A stretch of DNA of 64,000 bases from Candidatus Hebobacterum abditum (GCA_029821875.1 JALGXW010000027.1:6175-70174), one strand, 5' to 3'. Counted from the first letter of the stretch, positions 1,464 to 10,442 are shown. Translations and numbers: made by a program. Notes: a model not told the origin generated them from the letters alone.

Positions 1464-1504
1464 GGTGCCGGCGTAGCTCAGTTGGTAGAGCGGCTGATTT
1501 GTAA
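1464..1504 (+). repeat. 41-bp direct repeat (attL-like): 3 nt + first 38 nt of tRNA-Thr(TGT), identical to 7868-7908
   Basis: Exact 41/41 identity (ggtgccggcgtagctcagttggtagagcggctgatttgtaa). Identity ends at the anticodon-loop/3' anticodon-stem boundary, then the sequences diverge (acacca vs tcagta). Confidence 0.85.
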
Positions 1505-1774
1505 ACACCACTCGCGCGTGTTGCTCTTCCCCTCCATTTGCCGCACCATCTGTTCGCCTCCGTGACATCGTCCTGGGCGTACTGCCGAGGTCAAGCATGC
1601 CGGGCGATCCCAGATATACCTGGAATGTCTCTGAGCTGCCCACCGCGCGCGCTGGCCCTCTCAGAACCCGAAGCAGTCAGAGGAGTGGAGCAAACCTTGG
1701 CGCCCGTCAGGCCGGTCTCATCGTCGACTGAGAAGCACCCGGCGTCCCGGAGCCACTGAACGCGCATACAGTGA

Positions 1775-4700
1775 TCATCTCGCCTCCTGCGCTCGGCTCT
1801 GATCCCACCACTGTTGCCACTTGTCTGCATCGGTGCCGAAGTCCTGGCCGGTGATGGCGCGGAGGGCCTTCACCTCCGCGGTGATACTCCTTGGCGTGGG
1901 TTCGCCGCGGCCGAAGTAACGGTCTGCCTCGGCCACATCCTGCCGCAACGCCTCGATCAGCGCAGGCACGGCGGCCGGGTCCCTGAGTCGACCGATGGCT
2001 TCCGCCGCACCCACGCGAGAGGCAGCAAGGCAGTGGTCTGGATCCCGGAGGACGGTGAGGAGTAGCTTCACGGTACGGCGGTCGCCCACCTTGGCGAGCG
2101 CGACGGCGGCCGCGTGCCGGACCTGGCCGTCTGGATCATCCAGGAACGGTGCTATCGCCTCCGCGTTCTGCGGGTCGCCGATCTCGCCCAGCCCGGTAAC
2201 CGCCGCCAGACGGACTCCGACACTGTCGTCCTTCAGCAAGCGCACGAGCACCGGCGTCGCCCTGGGGTCCGCTATCTGGGCCAGCGCGCGGGCCGCGGCG
2301 CGGCGATTGCGCTGATCGGAGTCGCGCGTGAGAGGGAGGATGTCCGGCACCGCGGCTCGCGATCCTATCTCGCCGAGCGCCTTGGCGGCAGCGCGCCGCA
2401 GTCCCATGTCGCTGCTGTGGAGCAGCCCGAGTAGGAATGCCTCCGCGCGCGGGCCGCCGATCCGGCCGAGCGCCCATGTGGCATACCAGGCACCGTCGAA
2501 CTCCAGTCGCTCCAGTGTGCTGATGAGCGGCTCCACCGCCCGCGGATCGACTATCTCACCCAAGACGGATATGGCCGAAACTCGCACCTGCGGGTCGGTG
2601 TCGTGAAGCAGAATGTCGATCACCGGTTCGGTGGCCCGCCGATCCTTGATCCACAATAGGGGACCCAGCGCCTTCAGCCGGACCTTCGGATCCGGGTCGC
2701 TCAGTGCGGCCAGCAACGGCTCGAGAACAGCTTTGTTCTGGGCCTGACGCAGGCCGTCGCCGAGCGCATAGGAGACCCGCCCGCGGACGTACTCATCGGG
2801 GTCGTGGATCATGCCCAGCAGCGGCGTCACCGCGCGCGGATCGCCAATGAGACCGAGCGCCTCCGCAGCAGCGCCGCGGACACTCGGGTTGCTGTCCTTC
2901 AGGGCGGCCAGGAGACACTCCACCGCGTCGGCGGCATTCGGATGACCGAGTGCCCCGGCGGCCAGAGAACGCACCTCGGGGTCTTCGTCGGCGAGGAGAC
3001 CGGAGAGCACGCCAACGGTGCCTGTGCCGTCGAGGACACGGAGCGCGCTCGAGGACGCCCAACGCACCTCCGGGTGTTGATCCTTCAGGGCAGCGGCGAG
3101 TGGCTCAATGCCCTCAGGGTCGCCGAGCGAGCCAAGTGCCGTCGCCGCGGCGGCGCGGACCTCGTAGTCTGGGTCATGCTTGAGGATCGAAGCCAGGGGC
3201 GCGATGGTCTCCTTTCGCCCGAGCTCGCCAATCGCCCGGACCGCGGCGAGGCGAACGCGCCACACGCGGTCGTCCGCCGCTCTCAGGAGCGGATCCAGCC
3301 TCTCCGGCTCGCCGATCCTGCCCAGGGCACGTGCCGATGCCTCCCTCAGTTGCCAGTCGTCATCTCGAAGTGCCAGAAGCAGGTCAGGCACTGCCTTGTC
3401 GGACTGGAGGGCGCCCAGGGCTCTGGCCGCGGCGGCCCGAAGCGCCGGGTCGCCCTCGCGGAGGATCCCGAGGAGTAGCTCTTGGGCCCGTTGATCCCTG
3501 CTATCCCCCAGCGCTCTGATGGCTGCCCGTCGCACGAGCGCCTCGGCATCGCCCAACTGATGGATGAGGGCAGACACTGCCCCCGGGCCTCGCACCCGAC
3601 CGAGTTGCTGAGCGACGCCGAATCGGACGACGGGATCGGCATCGCGCGCGGCCTCTAGCAGGGAGTCCAGCAGGACCCGCTGGGCCTCCGTGCCAGCGAA
3701 CTCCGATCGGGGCCACATCCCCCAGAGCGCAGCATAGCGAACCGCGGGATCGGGATCGCGGAGTGCTGCGGCGCGGGCCCTCCACACCTCCGGCTCGTCG
3801 CGCATCGCGACAAGGTACATCGCCTGCCGGCGGACGGCCGGGTCCTCGTCACGAGCGAGCGGAAGGATCGCGTCCAGGTCGGCGTGCTGCTGCACGCGCG
3901 CGGGACCGCGAAGACCGTAGAGCGCCGCCGCGCGCACCGACGGTACCGGATCCTGCGTGAGTGCAACCAGTGGGGCCACGGCCATGCGCATCACGTTCTC
4001 GTCGTTCGTGTGGCAGAAGGCGGCTGCGCCGCGGGCTCGTACGAGGGCATCGGGTGACTGAAACCCGTCGATCAGCCGTCCGCCCACTTGCTCATCCCCA
4101 TAGTAGCCAAGCCCGAAGGCGGCGCGCCTCCCGACGCGGTCGTCCGCGTCTGCAAGGGCGGCGAAGAGAGCGTCCCTCGCTCGCGAATCGTCAACCAGCG
4201 GGCCGAGCCCTCCCACCGCGAGGAGTCGCACCTCCGGGTCTGGGTCGCGCCCCACCTCCAGGAGTGGCGCCACGGCCTTCGAATCGCGCAGCATGCCGAG
4301 CGTATAGGCCGCAGCCTGACGCACCGAGGGACCGTCATCTCCGAGAGACTCCTCGATCCCCTCTCCTGCCGCGCGGCGAACAGCATCTCCGGAGACCTCC
4401 GCCCTTGCGGGCTCCACCATGGCGGCCAACGCCAGCAGGGCTCCCCGGCGGACGCCCGGGTTCGAGTCGCCCAGTGCGGCCGAGAGCCCGGGAAGCGCCG
4501 GCTCCCCCAATCCCGCCAGCACGCGCACGGCCTGCTCGCCCACAGTCGTATCGCGGGACTGAGACGTCCACCACGGGTCCGGGTCGAGCCGGGCATACAT
4601 GGGGTCGCCCGGCAGCTCCGTATCGTCGGCGAGCATCCCTACGAGCGCAGGGACCGCTGGCGCGACACGGTCGCGGCTCGTCTGCAGGACCGTCGATGCT

Positions 4701-5869
4701 CGGAACCGCGCAAAGGCATCCGGGGAACGAAGCTCCGCCAGCGCCTGCTCCAGATCCGGAGTGAGGCCGTCCGCGCTCAGCTGCACAGCCGCGAAGGCCG
4801 CGGCAGAGAGCAGCAGCACCGCCGCCACCCCCAGCGCCAGCTTGCGGCTCAGCCGCCGCGCTCCATCAGCTCCAGTGATCGCCTCCACACGCTTGAGCAG
4901 TGTCGACTTCCGTTCGGCGACACCGACCGAGACCAATGCGAGCCGAGCATGCGCGCGCCTCGCGGCGGCGGTGAGTGAGCGAGCGTAGCTCGTCGGCTCG
5001 GCTCCCCGCTCCATGACCCAGGCGTCGCAGAGCTGTTCCCTCGCCAGGGAGATGTGCCGGCCAGCGAGCCAGACCACCGGGTGGAAGAACAGTGGTACTG
5101 CCAGCATCCGCTGCACCACGTTGACCAGGAAGTCGTGCCTGACGATGTGCGCCATCTCGTGTGCCAGGAGAGCGTGCAGGTCACTCTCGGAGAGAGACTC
5201 CAGCCACTCCTCCGGGAGCACGATCACCGGCCTCCGCCAACCGTACAGCAGCGGCGCGCCGGCCAGCTCGCTGCTGCGCAACTCCACACGTCTGGCCACG
5301 CCGGACGCGGCGCACAAGTCTTCCAGCATCGCCTGCAACTCGGCGTTCATGACTGGCGCACTGCTCTTGAGCATCATGCGTACCCACCGGTGCCCAAGCA
5401 GCAGCCGGAGCATGACCGCGCCGCAGCCTGTGAGCCAGAGGATGGCGACCAGGCCTGGCACCCCGAGCTGTTCCCAGAGAGACGGCGCCGGAGCCGGGAT
5501 GTCGGGCGAGTCAGGCGGAACCTTCGGGTTCGGAACGGCCGGTAGGCCCGCCACGTCCATCGTGGGCGTGGCGGTTAGCATCGGGGGCGCGATCAGCCGC
5601 GCCACCTGAGCGTCGGTCACGATCTCCGCCGCGGGACGGGGCACGGCGAGCACAACCGCGGCATCGTGGCGCGCCAGCATCACTCGAAGCGGCGTCAGCA
5701 CCAGCGGCGCGAGGAGCACGAACCACCACAGGGCATGCACCGCGTGCGGCTGACGCACGCGGGCAAGCCGCTGCAAGAGCCAGGCGAGCAACCCCAGCAG
5801 GACCAGCTGCCAGGTGATCGACCATCCGATTGCCGACCAGACACGGGATAGGAGGTGTACCAGCCACAT
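1775..5869 (-). CDS. BlaR1-type M56 family membrane metalloprotease fused to ~1000 aa of HEAT (PBS lyase-like) repeats, 1364 aa
   Basis: N-terminal hydrophobic helices (WSITWQLVLLGLLAWLL; LWWFVLLAPLVLTPL; VPGLVAILWLTGCGAVMLRLLLG), HEXXH zinc motif LAHEMAHIVRHD, a further TM (LALGVAAVLLLSAAAFAAVQL), then ~30 tandem ~31-aa repeats of the form DPDxxVRxxAAxALGxIGDPRAVxPLLxxL. Start codon sits 3 bp after the blaI-like stop. Confidence 0.8.
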   Translation of the reverse strand: MWLVHLLSRVWSAIGWSITWQLVLLGLLAWLLQRLARVRQPHAVHALWWFVLLAPLVLTPLRVMLARHDAAVVLAVPRPAAEIVTDAQVARLIAPPMLTATPTMDVAGLPAVPNPKVPPDSPDIPAPAPSLWEQLGVPGLVAILWLTGCGAVMLRLLLGHRWVRMMLKSSAPVMNAELQAMLEDLCAASGVARRVELRSSELAGAPLLYGWRRPVIVLPEEWLESLSESDLHALLAHEMAHIVRHDFLVNVVQRMLAVPLFFHPVVWLAGRHISLAREQLCDAWVMERGAEPTSYARSLTAAARRAHARLALVSVGVAERKSTLLKRVEAITGADGARRLSRKLALGVAAVLLLSAAAFAAVQLSADGLTPDLEQALAELRSPDAFARFRASTVLQTSRDRVAPAVPALVGMLADDTELPGDPMYARLDPDPWWTSQSRDTTVGEQAVRVLAGLGEPALPGLSAALGDSNPGVRRGALLALAAMVEPARAEVSGDAVRRAAGEGIEESLGDDGPSVRQAAAYTLGMLRDSKAVAPLLEVGRDPDPEVRLLAVGGLGPLVDDSRARDALFAALADADDRVGRRAAFGLGYYGDEQVGGRLIDGFQSPDALVRARGAAAFCHTNDENVMRMAVAPLVALTQDPVPSVRAAALYGLRGPARVQQHADLDAILPLARDEDPAVRRQAMYLVAMRDEPEVWRARAAALRDPDPAVRYAALWGMWPRSEFAGTEAQRVLLDSLLEAARDADPVVRFGVAQQLGRVRGPGAVSALIHQLGDAEALVRRAAIRALGDSRDQRAQELLLGILREGDPALRAAAARALGALQSDKAVPDLLLALRDDDWQLREASARALGRIGEPERLDPLLRAADDRVWRVRLAAVRAIGELGRKETIAPLASILKHDPDYEVRAAAATALGSLGDPEGIEPLAAALKDQHPEVRWASSSALRVLDGTGTVGVLSGLLADEDPEVRSLAAGALGHPNAADAVECLLAALKDSNPSVRGAAAEALGLIGDPRAVTPLLGMIHDPDEYVRGRVSYALGDGLRQAQNKAVLEPLLAALSDPDPKVRLKALGPLLWIKDRRATEPVIDILLHDTDPQVRVSAISVLGEIVDPRAVEPLISTLERLEFDGAWYATWALGRIGGPRAEAFLLGLLHSSDMGLRRAAAKALGEIGSRAAVPDILPLTRDSDQRNRRAAARALAQIADPRATPVLVRLLKDDSVGVRLAAVTGLGEIGDPQNAEAIAPFLDDPDGQVRHAAAVALAKVGDRRTVKLLLTVLRDPDHCLAASRVGAAEAIGRLRDPAAVPALIEALRQDVAEADRYFGRGEPTPRSITAEVKALRAITGQDFGTDADKWQQWWDQSRAQEAR

Positions 5870-5872
5870 GGC

Positions 5873-6265
5873 CTACTCCTTTCGCGACCTGCACTCGATG
5901 AGCTGCTGAACGCGAGAGAGCTCGGCCTCCGACAGCTTCTCGTCCTCGAGCAGGCGCATGAGCAGCGCCTCCGGCGAGCCCCGAAAGGTGGTCTGGATGA
6001 GGTCGCGCAGCAGGTTTCGCTTCACCTGTCGCTCCTTCACCTTTGCGTAGTATACGTGCGCCTTGCGGGTCTCGTCCCTGCCGACAAAACCCTTGTCTTG
6101 CATCACGCGGAGCATGGTGAGCACGGTGCTGTAGGCGGGAGTTGGCTTCACCGTCAGTGCCTCAAGCACGTCGCGCACGGTGGAAGGCCCTCGATCCCAG
6201 AGCACGTTCATGATCTGCATCTCCAGGTCCCCGAATCGCGGCCGCTCTCGCTTACGCATTCCCAT
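5873..6265 (-). CDS. BlaI/MecI/CopY family transcriptional repressor (penicillinase repressor fold), 130 aa
   Basis: Protein MGMRKRERPRFGDLEMQIMNVLWDRGPSTVRDVLEAL...AYSTVLTMLRVMQDKGFVGRDETRKAHVYYAKV matches the winged-helix N-terminus of BlaI/MecI/CopY. Immediately upstream of, and translationally coupled to, the M56 protease gene. Confidence 0.85.
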   Translation of the reverse strand: MGMRKRERPRFGDLEMQIMNVLWDRGPSTVRDVLEALTVKPTPAYSTVLTMLRVMQDKGFVGRDETRKAHVYYAKVKERQVKRNLLRDLIQTTFRGSPEALLMRLLEDEKLSEAELSRVQQLIECRSRKE

Positions 6266-6278
6266 CGCTTCCTGTATC

Positions 6279-6294
6279 TACTAATATATTAGCA
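6279..6294. promoter_or_regulatory. AT-rich perfect palindrome CTAATATATTAG (6281-6292; extended near-palindrome TACTAATATATTAGCA) 16 bp upstream of the blaI start, in the divergent blaI/int intergenic region; candidate BlaI operator
   Basis: Seen in sequence. Striking AT island in ~68% GC DNA. BlaI/MecI/CopY operators are AT-rich dyads (TACA/TGTA type). Confidence 0.35.
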
Positions 6295-6386
6295 TAAAGA
6301 GTACTACTCGTCCCTTCGGCTGTCAACAGGTGAACGAGTCTTGATCCCCGGCAGGCTCTTGACGGGCACCCCAACACTCGCTATTG

Positions 6387-6400
6387 TCGTACCACTGATT
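6387..6400 (+). repeat. 14-bp direct repeat TCGTACCACTGATT, copy 1 (upstream of integrase gene)
   Basis: Identical 14-mer at 7770-7783. Adjacent GCTGATT echoes (6411-6417). Confidence 0.4.
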
Positions 6401-6465
6401 GCGGCGTACTGCTGATTTCGGGCGGGATCGTCGCTGAGCACCAGACTCCGGGGCAGGCAGGTAGA

Positions 6466-7659
6466 ATGCCTAGTCCCACAGGGGGAGGCGGCACGACGCC
6501 GGGTCAGGACGATACAGTGGAGAGCCTCAACTGGTCGGCCTTGATAGGGCGCTTTCTGCAAGCGTGGGCCGCTGAGCATCCCGGGCTTCGACCTGCGACC
6601 ACGAAGCACTATCGCGAGCAGCTGGAGACGAGATTGGCCGCCTTCGCGGCGGAACGCGAGATACCGTCGGTTCGGGATTTCACGCGTGAGCATATGCGCG
6701 CGTTTGTTACCTGGCTCGATGAACACGTGACACGACGGGGACCGATGAGCCAGCGCGGGAAGCAGATGGCGTTGAACTCCGCGAAGATGCTACTGCGATG
6801 GTGCTACAGGGAGGGGCTGCTTGCCGAGGACATCAGCAGGAGCGTGAAGGGCTACCGGCTGAACGGGGGATGGAAGCCGCAGGCTACTCGCTCAGATGAC
6901 TTGGATGCTCTCCTCGCTGCCTTCAACGCGGGCACGCCGATGGGTATCCGCAACATAGCGACGATATACATGATGGCGCTGTGCGGGCTGCGCGTCTCTG
7001 AGCTCTGCGGCCTGAACGCTGCCGATCTGAACCCGTGCGAGGGCCTTGTGACCGTGAGATCCGAGACCAGGGGAGGCACTCGCGTCCGGAGTGTTGATCT
7101 ACCTTCCGTGATCCGCGATGGGAGGCTCATGACGCGACCGGAAGTGGCGGAGGTGTTGACGGCCTGGCTGGCTGTTCGCGCGCGTTTCTTCCCCGAACTT
7201 GAGGATGCTGATCCTCTGTTCGTAGCACTTGAGCCCGGGCGCGCCTCAGCTGGTAGCGAGAAACAGGAGCCAGATGCGGGGGGTGCAGGCCGACGGATGA
7301 CCGTTGATGGGGTACGCCTGATGTTGCGGCGGGCGGCGAAGCGAGCAGGCATCGACCCGAAGCGCGTCACGCCTAACCGGCTACGACACCACTTCGGCTT
7401 AAGCGCCACCGCTGCGGGAGTCAACCAGGCGGCTCTTATGGAAGCGATGGGGCACAAGTCTCCTCTGATGACGATGCGATATGCTGCGATCACGGACGAG
7501 GACCGCAGCCGGCAGCTTGCCCGAGCCGACATTGCCGGCGGAGTCAGATTCCCTGATGCCCAGCGTCACCGCCTGCCCACCCGCGAGGATGTGGAAGGGA
7601 CTCTTGAGGAAGAGGCAAGCCTGTCTGAGATAGCGCGGAAGCTGTTCGCCCGAGAGTAG
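6466..7659 (+). CDS. Tyrosine site-specific recombinase / phage-type integrase, 397 aa
   Basis: C-terminal catalytic motifs LRHHFGLSA, MGHKSPLMT, MRYAAI (R-H-R-Y family). N-terminal SAM-like core-binding region. Ends 210 bp from tRNA-Thr. Confidence 0.85.
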   Translation: MPSPTGGGGTTPGQDDTVESLNWSALIGRFLQAWAAEHPGLRPATTKHYREQLETRLAAFAAEREIPSVRDFTREHMRAFVTWLDEHVTRRGPMSQRGKQMALNSAKMLLRWCYREGLLAEDISRSVKGYRLNGGWKPQATRSDDLDALLAAFNAGTPMGIRNIATIYMMALCGLRVSELCGLNAADLNPCEGLVTVRSETRGGTRVRSVDLPSVIRDGRLMTRPEVAEVLTAWLAVRARFFPELEDADPLFVALEPGRASAGSEKQEPDAGGAGRRMTVDGVRLMLRRAAKRAGIDPKRVTPNRLRHHFGLSATAAGVNQAALMEAMGHKSPLMTMRYAAITDEDRSRQLARADIAGGVRFPDAQRHRLPTREDVEGTLEEEASLSEIARKLFARE

Positions 7660-7769
7660 GGTATGGGGCAGCCGACGAGCCCTGCTCACGGTGATGACAA
7701 GCCGATGTCAATCTGGTAGAATCGGCCCTGAATGCGAACAGCAGAATCGGTGTCGCGCACGTACGCTGA

Positions 7770-7783: not shown

Positions 7784-7870
7784 ATTGGATGCTGGAGACG
7801 AAGAGCCGGGTGCCGTAGGTGAGAAAATCGGCTCCTAGCTCAGAAAAAGAGTGTTCTAGGCGAATTGCGG

Positions 7871-7946
7871 TGCCGGCGTAGCTCAGTTGGTAGAGCGGCT
7901 GATTTGTAATCAGTAGGTCGCGGGTTCGAATCCTGCCGCCGGCTCC
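7871..7946 (+). tRNA. tRNA-Thr (anticodon TGT)
   Basis: Cloverleaf folded by hand: acceptor GCCGGCG/CGCCGGC, D-arm GCTC-AGTTGGTA-GAGC, anticodon stem GCTGA/TCAGT with loop TTTGTAA, T-arm GCGGG-TTCGAAT-CCTGC, discriminator T, encoded CCA. Its first 38 nt are duplicated at 1467-1504. Confidence 0.85.
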
Positions 7947-8010
7947 ACTCTTCTCGTTCGCCGGAGGTGGATGAGAAGAGTGACCTCGAGCGAAGTCGAG
8001 GGGCCACGAC

Positions 8011-8349
8011 ATGACCGCCGGCAGCTCACGGCATTTGTACATGGTGCGCTGTTCTGACGGGTCTCTCTACACCGGCATTGCCAGAGACCCCGAGGAGCGG
8101 GCCCGCGTCCACAATCAGGGACAGGGGGCAGACTACACCGCTCGACGTCGCCCTGTAGTGCTGGTCTACTCAGAGCGACATGCACGCACGTCTGCCGCCC
8201 GCGGACGTGAGCTTCAGGTCAAAGCTTGGCGGGCAGAGAAGAAGGAGCATCTTGTGCGCGGGATTCCCTCAGCAGGCTCGGGACAAGCGAATCCTGCCGC
8301 CAGCTCCAGGTGGTTTGCACGCGGCGCGCCCGCGGCGTCACGGAGATAA
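8011..8349 (+). CDS. GIY-YIG nuclease family small protein (UvrC N-terminal-like), ~112 aa
   Basis: YMVRCSDGSLYTGIARDPEERARVHNQGQGADYTARRRPVVLVYSERHARTSAARGRELQVKAWRAEKKEHLV matches the GIY...YIG...R...E...N core. Lies 65 bp after tRNA-Thr. Confidence 0.65.
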   Translation: MTAGSSRHLYMVRCSDGSLYTGIARDPEERARVHNQGQGADYTARRRPVVLVYSERHARTSAARGRELQVKAWRAEKKEHLVRGIPSAGSGQANPAASSRWFARGAPAASRR

Positions 8350-10442
8350 TGCCCCGAAGGAAGGGCCTGCCCCTTGAATCCAGGCGGCGTCCGGCGCCGC
8401 CGCCAGAGACACCTGCCCCGCCGTCCCGCCTTACGCTGGCGGCCTCGGTGGGCGTGTTCGTGTTCCTCCTCCTCGTCTATCACGCGACCCTCATCCGCAC
8501 GGTCATAGATCAAGATAGCGGCGAGCTTGTCGCCGCCGCGCATGTACTCGGGATCGCGCACCCCACTGGCTATCCGCTCTGGGTGCTGCTGGGGCGCGTG
8601 TTCGACTTCCTTCCGGTGGGTGGGACGAGTGCCTACCGGGTGGCCCTGCTGTCCGCCGTGGCGTCCGCTGCGGCCGGCGGGATTCTGGCCGCGCTCGCGA
8701 TGCGGCTGGCGCGGAACGTCGCCGCGGGGGTGCTAGCCGGGGTGGCATTCGGGCTGTGGTTTCCAGTGTGGAGCCAGGCCGTGCGGGCGGAGGTATACGG
8801 GCTGACGGCGCTACTTGCGGCGCTCGCCCTCGCTGCGGCGATCCGATGGGACGCGGATCGCTCGCCCCGCGCGCTGGCGTGGCTCGCCCTCGCCGTCGGC
8901 TTCGTCTCGATGCACCATCGGACCGCGATGCTCGCGGTGGCTCCGGCCTTCGTCGTCGCAGCCCTACTGACCAGGCCGAGACGGACGCGGTGGTACTTGG
9001 CGGCCGCGGGGCTCCTCCTTGCACCGTTCGCCTTCTACTTGTACCTGCCCATTCGCGCGGCCGCGCGGCCGCCGGTCAACTGGACCGACCCAGTGACATG
9101 GGACCGGTTCTGGGAGCACGTGCTGGCAACCCAGTACACGGGGTACGCCTTCTCTCACACCGCTGGGCAGATGGCGGGTCTCTTCGAGCGGCTGCTCCCG
9201 GAGTTGCTCGTGCCCAGCGGGGCCTGGGCTACGGTGCTCGCCCTGATCGCGCTGCCGTTCGCGGCCTGGGGCTGGCGGCAGTGGCTCCGGCGACGGCCGA
9301 CCATCGCGGGCTCCCTGCTGGCGGGGGCGGCGCTGCTGGTGTACTGGGTCCTGCAGTGGGGCGAGACAACTGACCTGAAGGTCTTCTTCGGGCCGGCTGG
9401 AGCGATAGTCGCGCTCTGCGGCGCAGTCGGGATGGGGGCGGGCGGCAGGCACTTGGCCTCGCGAGCAGCGGCGATGGCGGCGGGCGTCGCGGTGTGCGTT
9501 GTCCTGCTCCTTGGCAACTGGGGGCGGGCCGATCTCAGCAATCTCTGGCAGCACCGCGACCGTTGGGTCGCGATGCTGTCATCGCTGGAGCCGGACGCCA
9601 TCTTCATCTCGGACAACGATGTCCCGAGCTTCGCGACGATGTACCTGCAGACCGTGGAGGAGATGCGACCGGACGTGACGCTCATTCGCGTCGTGCCGCT
9701 GCAGATGGACTGGTACGTCGGAACGCTGGCGGATGAGACGATACGGGAGCCGGTGCGCCGATCGTGGGAGGAGACGGAGGCGGCGCTGTCGGGCCTGGCG
9801 GCGAGGGAGCTCACGCGGTACAAGTGGGAGCGGACGGCAGTCTTCGCCTACCTCCTGGCCCAGCGGCTGGATAGACGTCGGCCCGTGTACGCGCTGCACG
9901 GGCCGAGGACCATAGAGTTGACGGGGCCGCCGTACTTCGTCGGGATCAGCGAGGATCTGGTGGCCCTTCGCGCCGCGCGCCCCGGGCCGGTACCGGCCGA
10001 AGCGGGGGAGGCGACGGCCGCGTTCCCAGGCGGCATTGCGCTGACCGAATTCGTACTGGGGCGGAGTGAGGTCGGCACCGGAGAGCTGATGGAGTTTGAG
10101 AGCCGCTGGCGAGTGCCGACACGAGTGCCGGGGCCGGCGCAGTTCGCCGTGCGGCTCGTGCCGCGCGACGTGGAGAAGGAGCGCTTCGCCGAGGAGCTGA
10201 CGCCGAACGGTCGCTTCACTCAGGCCTTCCCGCTGCTGGCGAGCCAATGGGGCCTCGCGCCCCTGGCGGAGGGCACTGAATTCGAGCAGGCGGGGGTGCT
10301 CATCGTGCCTACTAACTGCCCGCCCGGGCCGTGCGCAGTGGAGGTTGGCATCGGGCCGCTGTACAGCCCGGAGAACGTGGGCTGGGCCGAGGTCGCGCAG
10401 ATCGAAGTGGCGCCCCGGCCGCTGCCGTCGAATGCTCCCTAG
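8349..10442 (+). CDS. DUF2723-type polytopic membrane protein (PMT/TMEM260-like glycosyltransferase family)
   Basis: N-terminal TM then DQDSGELVAAAHVLGIAHPTGYPLW motif characteristic of DUF2723. Many TM helices, C-terminal soluble domain. Start chosen at ATG 8349 (MPRRKG...) rather than the ORF-track 8226, which overlaps the GIY-YIG gene. Confidence 0.6.
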   Translation: MPRRKGLPLESRRRPAPPPETPAPPSRLTLAASVGVFVFLLLVYHATLIRTVIDQDSGELVAAAHVLGIAHPTGYPLWVLLGRVFDFLPVGGTSAYRVALLSAVASAAAGGILAALAMRLARNVAAGVLAGVAFGLWFPVWSQAVRAEVYGLTALLAALALAAAIRWDADRSPRALAWLALAVGFVSMHHRTAMLAVAPAFVVAALLTRPRRTRWYLAAAGLLLAPFAFYLYLPIRAAARPPVNWTDPVTWDRFWEHVLATQYTGYAFSHTAGQMAGLFERLLPELLVPSGAWATVLALIALPFAAWGWRQWLRRRPTIAGSLLAGAALLVYWVLQWGETTDLKVFFGPAGAIVALCGAVGMGAGGRHLASRAAAMAAGVAVCVVLLLGNWGRADLSNLWQHRDRWVAMLSSLEPDAIFISDNDVPSFATMYLQTVEEMRPDVTLIRVVPLQMDWYVGTLADETIREPVRRSWEETEAALSGLAARELTRYKWERTAVFAYLLAQRLDRRRPVYALHGPRTIELTGPPYFVGISEDLVALRAARPGPVPAEAGEATAAFPGGIALTEFVLGRSEVGTGELMEFESRWRVPTRVPGPAQFAVRLVPRDVEKERFAEELTPNGRFTQAFPLLASQWGLAPLAEGTEFEQAGVLIVPTNCPPGPCAVEVGIGPLYSPENVGWAEVAQIEVAPRPLPSNAP

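Follow-up and report, generated by a model that had tools for sequence, protein, structure and literature searches.

The closest described systems to the locus analysed here are BlaR1/BlaI and MecR1/MecI of Staphylococcus aureus. In both, an M56 zinc protease with four transmembrane (TM) segments carries HEXXH and EXXXD motifs in the cytoplasmic loop that joins TM3 to TM4 and an outer domain past TM4, the gene of a winged-helix repressor lies in the same operon, and a palindromic operator is found at the operon's own promoter. A pair with this layout was found in a 64,000-nt stretch of DNA of Candidatus Hebobacterum abditum (GCA_029821875.1, JALGXW010000027.1:6175-70174), the whole of which is called the window below. 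Its blaR-like product (P0001, with an identical entry in NCBI/JGI) has BlaR1 (8EXP-8EXT) as its best PDB match by both sequence and fold. Unlike BlaR1 and MecR1, it carries about 1000 residues of HEAT repeats where they have a penicillin-binding, transpeptidase-like sensor, and the repressor lacks the conserved N-F scissile site of BlaI and MecI. The two genes probably encode a non-canonical BlaIR-type regulated-proteolysis pair, consisting of an M56 sensor-protease with an outer HEAT solenoid and a BlaI-like repressor.

The CenIR study (2026) covered about 15,000 InterPro M56 proteins with 254 architectures, of which about 6% had a beta-lactam-binding domain; about 96% of M56 proteins were linked to a BlaI-like gene (PMC13492132). 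The characterised non-canonical pairs are CenIR of C. difficile, PetRP of Synechocystis (copper), PvmSR of P. aeruginosa (virulence, on a genomic island) and the mycobacterial BlaIR. CenR, PetP and PvmS, which have no transpeptidase domain, act as regulators in BlaI-type pairs or are inferred to do so, the most direct case being PetP, which controls the levels of PetR. All four pairs combine an M56 protein with a BlaI-family repressor, have no beta-lactam-binding domain and respond to something other than beta-lactams, and CenIR and PetRP act on targets that are not linked to the pair. PvmSR shares with the window pair a location on a genomic island. The outer domains of these sensors are short, disordered or absent, whereas that of the window protein is among the largest structured ones in the M56 proteins examined.

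Replacement of the beta-lactam sensor is the rule for M56 proteins and not the exception, so few of them having a transpeptidase domain, and fusions of M56 to HEAT repeats are already annotated publicly; both points lower the surprise at this locus. In IMG they are named 'beta-lactamase regulating signal transducer with metallopeptidase domain/HEAT repeat protein' (for example P0031, P0041 and P0081). No paper on an M56-HEAT fusion or its ligand was found in open-access PMC and bioRxiv full text. The locus belongs with the M56 and BlaI families but does not encode a beta-lactam sensor of the BlaR1/MecR1 kind; it is a rare architectural variant of the BlaIR type. New here are an array predicted to lie outside the cytoplasm, an orthologous family of three members with conservation at the level of single repeats, an apparent junction for sensor exchange at TM4, a candidate operator conserved in relatives and an island at a tRNA-Thr gene.

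The M56 protease module

The blaR-like gene and its parts are located in the window as follows:

1775-5869, minus strand: blaR-like gene, M56 sensor-protease with a C-terminal HEAT array (open reading frame (ORF) of 1364 aa)
4781-5869, minus strand: M56 module, residues 1-363 (from hydropathy, charge, phmmer alignment to S. aureus BlaR1 and an AlphaFold2 (AF2) model)
5147-5161, minus strand: codons of the zinc-binding HEXXH motif, H237-E238-M-A-H241 (invariant in alignments, aligned to BlaR1)
1778-4780, minus strand: predicted extracytoplasmic region, residues 364-1364, with about 30 HEAT repeats of the PBS/alphaRep type (380-1305) and a C-terminal cap ending ITGQDFGTDADKWQQWW

A preliminary description of this DNA had proposed that the protein begins with a BlaR1/MecR1-type arrangement and that its beta-lactam sensor is replaced by some 30 HEAT repeats, and both proposals held. 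Peptidase_M56 (PF05569) matched residues 17-331 significantly (E 8e-32, 111 bits, cut-off 31), covering profile positions 5-296 of 296. The HEXXH motif, LAHEMAHIVRHD, contains H237, E238 and H241, and the gluzincin zinc site is complete, H237-E238-xx-H241 being followed 37 residues on by E278-xxx-D282. When the protein was compared with PDB sequences by phmmer, the sole match was S. aureus BlaR1, with residues 139-327 aligned to BlaR1 104-294, so that H237-E238-xx-H241 falls on the BlaR1 HEXXH and E278-xxx-D282 on its EXXXD. In the sequence alignment, the stretch KSTLLKR327 stands opposite BlaR1 KKSLLKRR294, which includes the autocleavage arginines R293-R294, and R327 is invariant. The other invariant columns in both alignments, one of 38 close relatives and one of 41 from a broader set, are H237, E238, H241, D246, P264, E278 and D282. 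Because the catalytic columns are invariant in both sets, the M56 protease of the window looks active.

For residues 1-392, AF2 modelling on a 41-sequence alignment reached a predicted local distance difference test score (pLDDT) of 82.4 and a predicted TM-score (pTM) of 0.75. Searched against the PDB with Foldseek, the model gave six top matches that were all from BlaR1 cryo-EM structures (8exq, 8ext, 8exp, 8exs and 8exr; E 2e-7 to 1e-4), and Ste24 and BepA were the next fold matches to the M56 module. The TM-scores to BlaR1 were modest (0.35-0.54), as is to be expected for a monomer model compared with a domain-swapped BlaR1 dimer. No match to a penicillin-binding or transpeptidase-type sensor (PF00905-type) was obtained when the window protein was searched with Pfam, HEAT alone being found after TM4. 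The NCBIfam models of BlaR1 and MecR1 stayed far under their cut-offs; blaR1_generic reached 84 bits (cut-off 400), over residues 141-357 only, and sensor_BlaR1 24 bits (cut-off 1200).

Predicted membrane topology

Four hydrophobic segments were found by hydropathy: TM1 (14-32), TM2 (43-65), TM3 (140-158) and TM4 (344-362). The HEXXH motif is located in the TM3-TM4 loop, L3 (159-342, 184 residues), which has an isoelectric point (pI) of 9.9 and the sequence RRLSRK directly ahead of TM4. The loop between TM1 and TM2, L1 (QRLARVRQPH), is also basic. The Pro-rich loop between TM2 and TM3, L2 (66-135, 70 residues), is acidic with a pI of 4.6, as is everything past TM4 (pI 5.2). Taking hydropathy, positive-inside charge, loop pI, AF2 helices and homology to BlaR1 together, the protein is predicted to have the BlaR1 topology, with the HEXXH motif on the cytoplasmic face and the HEAT array outside the cytoplasm. 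A hydrophobic N-terminus resembling a signal peptide is present in a stand-alone HEAT homologue (P0009) and likewise in the HEAT matches P0020, P0028, P0030 and P0045. Judged from their sequences, these HEAT-only proteins support an exported location for arrays of such a kind.

A HEAT array in place of the penicillin-binding sensor

The array was recognised by Pfam as HEAT_2 (E 4e-142, in 15 stretches), HEAT (E 5.6e-83) and HEAT_PBS (E 8e-59). A repeat hidden Markov model (HMM) trained on the protein itself counted 29-30 units between residues 380 and 1305, in good agreement with the number proposed earlier, and the period of about 31 residues given for the consensus was found to be strictly 31 from 741 to 1271, with the consensus LRDPDPEVRRAAARALGELGDPRAVEPLL, which agrees with the one proposed earlier. 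No tandem repeats were detected at the DNA level in the blaR-like gene, and the array is therefore old and diverged; the same result rules out that it expanded recently or arose through misassembly.

Without an alignment, AF2 produced an all-helical solenoid with a mean pLDDT of 68.7, rising above 80 over about 783-1273. The fold matches of this model (Foldseek) were CAND1, karyopherins, the PP2A A subunit and artificial alphaRep binders (33-42% identity). The alphaRep proteins are artificial, were designed from the 31-residue PBS-HEAT repeat and are good protein binders. With alphaRep and PBS-lyase proteins (CpcE/F, NblB; 6FSQ, 4ZV6, 6BZX) the window array shares the 31-residue repeat, the consensus DPxVRxxAAxALGxIGDPRAVxPL and the fold, an alpha-solenoid that is curved and has a binding surface of variable sequence. 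In contrast to the window array, with its roughly 30 repeats, predicted export and fusion to a membrane protease, CpcE/F, NblB and alphaRep are cytoplasmic or artificial and have 4-11 repeats. The NCBIfam scores for NblB (220, cut-off 300), CpcE (195, cut-off 330), CpcF and CpeY were all below cut-off and reflect repeat similarity only, and identity as a bilin lyase was rejected. Identity as a defence system was rejected as well, since the PADLOC models yielded only generic HEAT similarity.

The homologue P0009 (L016, 8001-11177) is a stand-alone HEAT protein of 1058 residues that has the same C-terminal cap as the window protein (SITGQNFGEDAAKWREWW versus AITGQDFGTDADKWQQWW), the part common to the two being ITGQxFGxDxxKWxxWW. 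Downstream of its gene (L016, 11191-19177) lie two giant ORFs, of 1663 aa and >1228 aa, for which Pfam gave no match.

Repressor, promoter and candidate operator

The elements upstream of the blaR-like gene are:

5873-6265, minus strand: blaI-like repressor gene, Penicillinase_R (Pfam, NCBIfam, alignment with PDB relatives)
6326-6298, minus strand: promoter-like site of blaI-blaR, TTGACA (6326-6321), 17 nt, TACTCT (6303-6298), read from sequence
6279-6294, no strand assigned: candidate BlaI operator, 16-bp palindrome TACTAATATATTAGCA (TACTAA-N4-TTAGCA), from a dyad search and its conserved position

The BlaI-family gene had been described as coupled to blaR across a gap of 3 bp, which was confirmed. 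Its product matched Penicillinase_R (PF03965; E 2.5e-30, 105.6 bits, cut-off 22.6) and was aligned over the full length with its nearest relatives of solved structure, MecI (1SD6/1OKR), Rv1846c of M. tuberculosis (2G9W) and BlaI (1SD4). The gene lies directly upstream of blaR, the blaI TAG being separated by GCC (3 bp) from the blaR ATG, with AAGGAG within the last blaI codons. The JGI call for the repressor, P0233, has 115 aa and begins at Met16. The true start is probably the ATG at 6259, because homologues of 128-130 aa begin with MRKRE. The cysteine metal site of CopY (CxCxxxxCxC) is absent from the repressor, the C-terminus of which (...QQLIECRSRKE) has one Cys, and the CopY model TIGR02698 scored 58.5 bits against a cut-off of 122.

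The candidate operator lies five nt past the TACTCT (-10) sequence and has a perfectly palindromic core of 12 bp, CTAATATATTAG. It is unique in the 64-kb window, where, at 65% G+C, 0 copies are expected. At the matching position upstream of blaI, the dyad TACTAA...TTAGTA was found in the related loci L001-L005, and the TTGACA-17-TAnnnT pattern was likewise found in L001 and L005. Six relatives keep the dyad behind a promoter of this pattern. In L001, the closest orthologue, the operator at the corresponding position reads TATCAATATATTAGTA. L005 and the loci of M56 relatives L002-L004, which come from metagenome-assembled genomes (MAGs) including an Armatimonadota MAG and a 'Ca. Hebobacteria' MAG, each have one copy of TACTAACAAnnnATTAGTA just upstream of blaI. 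The spacer of the dyad is 4 nt in the window and L001 and 7 nt in the other related loci. An exact scan of metagenome contigs for the 19-mer gave 9 loci; in 7 of the 9 a blaI homologue starts 25-42 nt downstream, and the remaining two are AT-rich, have no related genes and are probably chance matches. By position and conservation the dyad is a candidate BlaI operator throughout the clade, in what appears to be an autoregulatory position.

Orthologues and exchange of the outer domain

Residues 1-372 were used in a HMMER scan of 1.84 billion representative proteins, which returned 75,892 M56 proteins. At least 3 HEAT units were present in only 5 of the best 150 of these matches; in the two samples counted, both of them biased, HEAT was carried by these 5 of 150 and by 2 of 37. 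Three of the five, the window protein, P0002 and P0112 (1347-1367 aa), are collinear throughout, including the C-terminal cap, with 42-44% identity, and they are the only collinear orthologues in the set of 1.84 billion. In the regular part of the array, the identity between orthologues was 36-40% in register and 16-26% with the alignment displaced by one, two or three repeats. Single repeats are accordingly orthologous, and the array of about 30 repeats is older than the split. The identity of P0002 to the window protein was 67% in the M56 part and 35-36% in the HEAT part, and that of P0112 was 44% and 40-42%, so the two parts did not diverge in parallel. The question raised in the preliminary description, whether such fusions are always paired with BlaI or often lie near integrases, was answered in part. 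The pairing with BlaI and the 3-bp gap are kept in all three orthologous loci, whereas an integrase adjoins the window copy and neither of the other two.

In P0003 (774 aa), the M56 part is 65% identical to window residues 1-372, and the similarity ends directly after the TM4 motif AFAAVQ; beyond TM4 the protein continues into an unrelated domain that is repetitive, rich in Gly, Arg and Trp and not matched by Pfam. By this comparison of sequences, the breakpoint appears to mark a clean junction for sensor exchange at TM4. Pfam identified HEAT in 4, CarboxypepD_reg in 7, Big_1 in 3, TPR in 2 and Secretin_N in 2 of the 38 closest M56 relatives, the alignment consensus of which breaks down immediately past TM4. 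Among M56 proteins at a greater distance, some have shorter HEAT arrays (P0031, P0041, P0079 and P0081) and others LRR, TPR, WD40, ankyrin, TonB_C or M23 domains. Since unrelated domains follow a conserved TM4, the outer domain is apparently an exchangeable cassette, with HEAT as one option among many, and HEAT arrays were seemingly recruited onto M56 more than once.

Some related loci showed features of their own. In L015 (12663-14174), the M56 gene after blaI is shortened to 101 codons and followed by overlapping ORFs of 106 and 112 aa, which, judged from their translations, resemble a nucleotidyltransferase/HEPN-type toxin-antitoxin pair; the sequence suggests that an insertion inactivated the sensor. 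In L005 (6779-9997) and L015 (10394-13112), the gene immediately before blaI, in the same orientation, encodes a protein of 378-387 aa and is itself preceded by that of an AraC-type regulator. The L005 protein has a weak CarboxypepD_reg match and the regulator AraC-family Pfam hits, the likeness of L015 being judged from translations. The regulator and the 378-387-aa protein could possibly form a conserved neighbourhood of L005 and L015, one that is absent from the window.

Insertion at a tRNA-Thr gene

The remaining features of the island are:

6466-7659, plus strand: tyrosine integrase gene, divergent from blaI (Phage_integrase E 9.5e-23; PHROG 1 integrase E 1e-34)
1464-1507, plus strand: left island boundary, an orphan 5' half of tRNA-Thr(UGU) (44-nt direct repeat, 98% identical to 7869-7912)
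7869-7947, plus strand: right island boundary, 7869-7912, inside the intact tRNA-Thr(UGU) gene, 7872-7947 (direct repeat, tRNA gene)

The 44-nt repeat consists of the first 41 nt of tRNA-Thr(UGU) and 3 nt upstream of it, with one mismatch between the copies, and the sequences flanking it diverge. Between the repeats lie 6.4 kb in which blaR, blaI and int are the sole identifiable genes, and from these boundaries the blaI-blaR pair and the integrase appear to form an island inserted in tRNA-Thr(UGU). With other islands of tyrosine integrases at tRNA genes it shares an integrase adjoining the tRNA gene and flanking direct repeats derived from the tRNA. Such islands usually replace the 3' part of the tRNA, and a 5' polarity is less usual. 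The window island differs from the usual ones in duplicating the 5' half of the tRNA, with the integrase upstream of the intact gene, and in having a sensor-repressor pair as its only cargo. A promoter-like xTGACA-17-TAGAAT sequence is present at both 7694-7722 and 1275-1303, the island side of the right repeat having its own diverged copy of the region upstream of the tRNA. Judging by this copy, the element seems to replace the promoter and the 5' half of tRNA-Thr with its own, and not the 3' end. No family match was obtained for small ORFs at the left end of the island (1452-1830) or for ORFs of the left flank, and no excisionase was recognised among them. The orthologous loci L001 and L005 have no integrase or tRNA nearby (the neighbour in L001 is an ABC-ATPase-like fragment), and the island is therefore a feature of the window copy and not of the family.

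Proposed mechanism and alternatives

In the non-canonical BlaIR-type pair that we favour, an extracytoplasmic ligand would bind the periplasmic HEAT solenoid of about 1000 residues, placed where BlaR1 has its penicillin-binding domain. The signal would be relayed via TM4 and the outer loop L2 and would activate the cytoplasmic M56 site in the TM3-TM4 loop. The activated protease would then cut the dimeric BlaI-like repressor, which would be released from the palindromic operator at the blaI-blaR promoter and from any unlinked sites, leading to derepression. To the domain identities, catalytic-residue conservation, predicted topology, gene coupling, operator position and island boundaries established here, this scheme adds two steps that we infer, the cleavage of the repressor by the M56 protease and the action of the HEAT array as a ligand-binding input. 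The ligand would most likely be a macromolecule, that is, a protein, a peptide or an envelope polymer, because the fold is known as a protein-binding surface and because conservation is specific to individual repeats. As for CenIR and PetRP, the output regulon is presumably unlinked to the pair.

Several points weigh against this proposal. The topology of the window protein is a prediction, and the ligand, the cleavage and the regulon are so far hypothetical. The scissile pair N101-F102 of MecI and BlaI corresponds in the alignment to R104-L105 of the window repressor, and the cleavage site is therefore not transferable from these proteins. No further copies of the operator were found in the 64-kb window (allowing up to 3 mismatches) or within 10 kb of any related locus. 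No alignment went into the AF2 model of the solenoid, in which residues 344-444 and parts of 480-760 are poorly predicted. Finally, the solenoid might serve as a scaffold or tether and not as a receptor.

This last explanation would make of the array a periplasmic scaffold, ruler or tether that reports, for example, envelope spacing or integrity, or that is degraded by envelope proteases to trigger the M56 protease in a site-1/site-2-like manner, with the same BlaI/M56 output. It could account for the great length and regularity of the array and for the Pro-rich or poorly predicted linkers in L2 and at residues 364-444, and other non-canonical BlaR proteins do have disordered outer domains that do not look like ligand receptors and were proposed by their authors to be tethers or probes. 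We nevertheless regard it as unlikely, as the excess of in-register identity (36-40% versus 16-26%) and the conserved C-terminal cap favour a specific surface over a generic spacer, and the different folds carried by close M56 relatives (CarboxypepD_reg, Big_1, TPR and Secretin_N) fit interchangeable recognition modules better. Alternatively, the array could lie in the cytoplasm as an intracellular protein-binding platform, as in eukaryotes and NACHT-HEAT proteins, with the M56 protease acting on other substrates. Most characterised HEAT proteins are indeed intracellular, and many of the top HEAT-only hits are cytoplasmic NACHT/STAND fusions (P0005-P0007, P0040 and P0050). This would, however, contradict the clear positive-inside pattern of the four TM segments and the signal-peptide-like N-termini of P0009, P0020, P0028, P0030 and P0045; moreover, L3, being homologous to that of BlaR1, must share a side with the DNA-binding substrate, and the number of TM segments between L3 and the array is odd. 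An inverted topology is accordingly very improbable.

The blaI-blaR pair might also be the island's own switch, similar to ImmR/ImmA of integrative and conjugative elements (ICEs) and phages, by which an outside signal controls the expression of the integrase and excision. Such a role would agree with the gene content of the island, in which blaI-blaR and int are divergent and share a control region of 200 bp, and with the match of BlaI to a PHROG family of transcription regulators (E 6e-11). Against it, the orthologous pairs in L001 and L005 exist without integrase or tRNA, the operator overlaps only the blaI promoter and is about 65 nt from the promoter-like site of int, there is no second dyad or half-site within 6266-6470, and an excisionase is lacking among the recognised genes; we give this possibility little credence. 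A more far-reaching extension of the receptor proposal would see in the island a self-contained mobile sensory cassette. Its giant HEAT receptor would read a macromolecule, for instance a protein that is secreted or exposed at a surface, part of a phage, or a polymer of the envelope. Its BlaI would share the TACTAA...TTAGTA operator family with resident paralogues, so that a BlaI regulon already present would gain a further extracellular input with the island, and the M56 clade would consist of modular receptors that exchange outer domains at TM4. In this full form the idea is speculative and rather unlikely to be correct.

BlaIR-type regulated proteolysis is a broad signalling family in which few of the sensed signals have been identified, and the window locus provides a well-defined test case, with a large outer domain of the alphaRep type that is predicted to fold, an apparently clean point of exchange at TM4, a candidate operator that relatives share and a compact mobile context. 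Should a ligand of the solenoid be found, this would be the first BlaR-type sensor, among the BlaIR systems compared, shown to read a macromolecule, and it would illustrate how bacteria connect many inputs to a single chassis of protease and repressor. At present the locus is a variant at the level of a catalogue and does not establish a new principle.

Neighbouring genes and minor observations

The scan of neighbouring genes, which reached window position ~19,100, recognised no beta-lactamase or PBP2a gene. Apart from the integrase, the neighbours in this range encode a TMEM260-like glycosyltransferase, an amidohydrolase, a short-chain dehydrogenase and 2 + 4 proteins without a family match, and the remainder of the window contains ordinary metabolism and transport genes. 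The 21-nt 3' end of tRNA-Thr (7927-7947) is repeated with 20 of 21 nt identical at 8288-8308, 361 nt downstream, perhaps as a scar left by a second integration at the same tRNA. The repeat is close to the nominal start of the TMEM260-like ORF (8226-10442), the Pfam match of which starts only at residue 97. Between the promoter-like site of int (6359-6387) and its ATG (6466), two tandem 17-nt direct repeats, CGTAC(C/T)(A/G)CTGATT(G/T)CGG, are found at 6388-6422, which could be either a site for a regulator or an arm-type site of the integrase.

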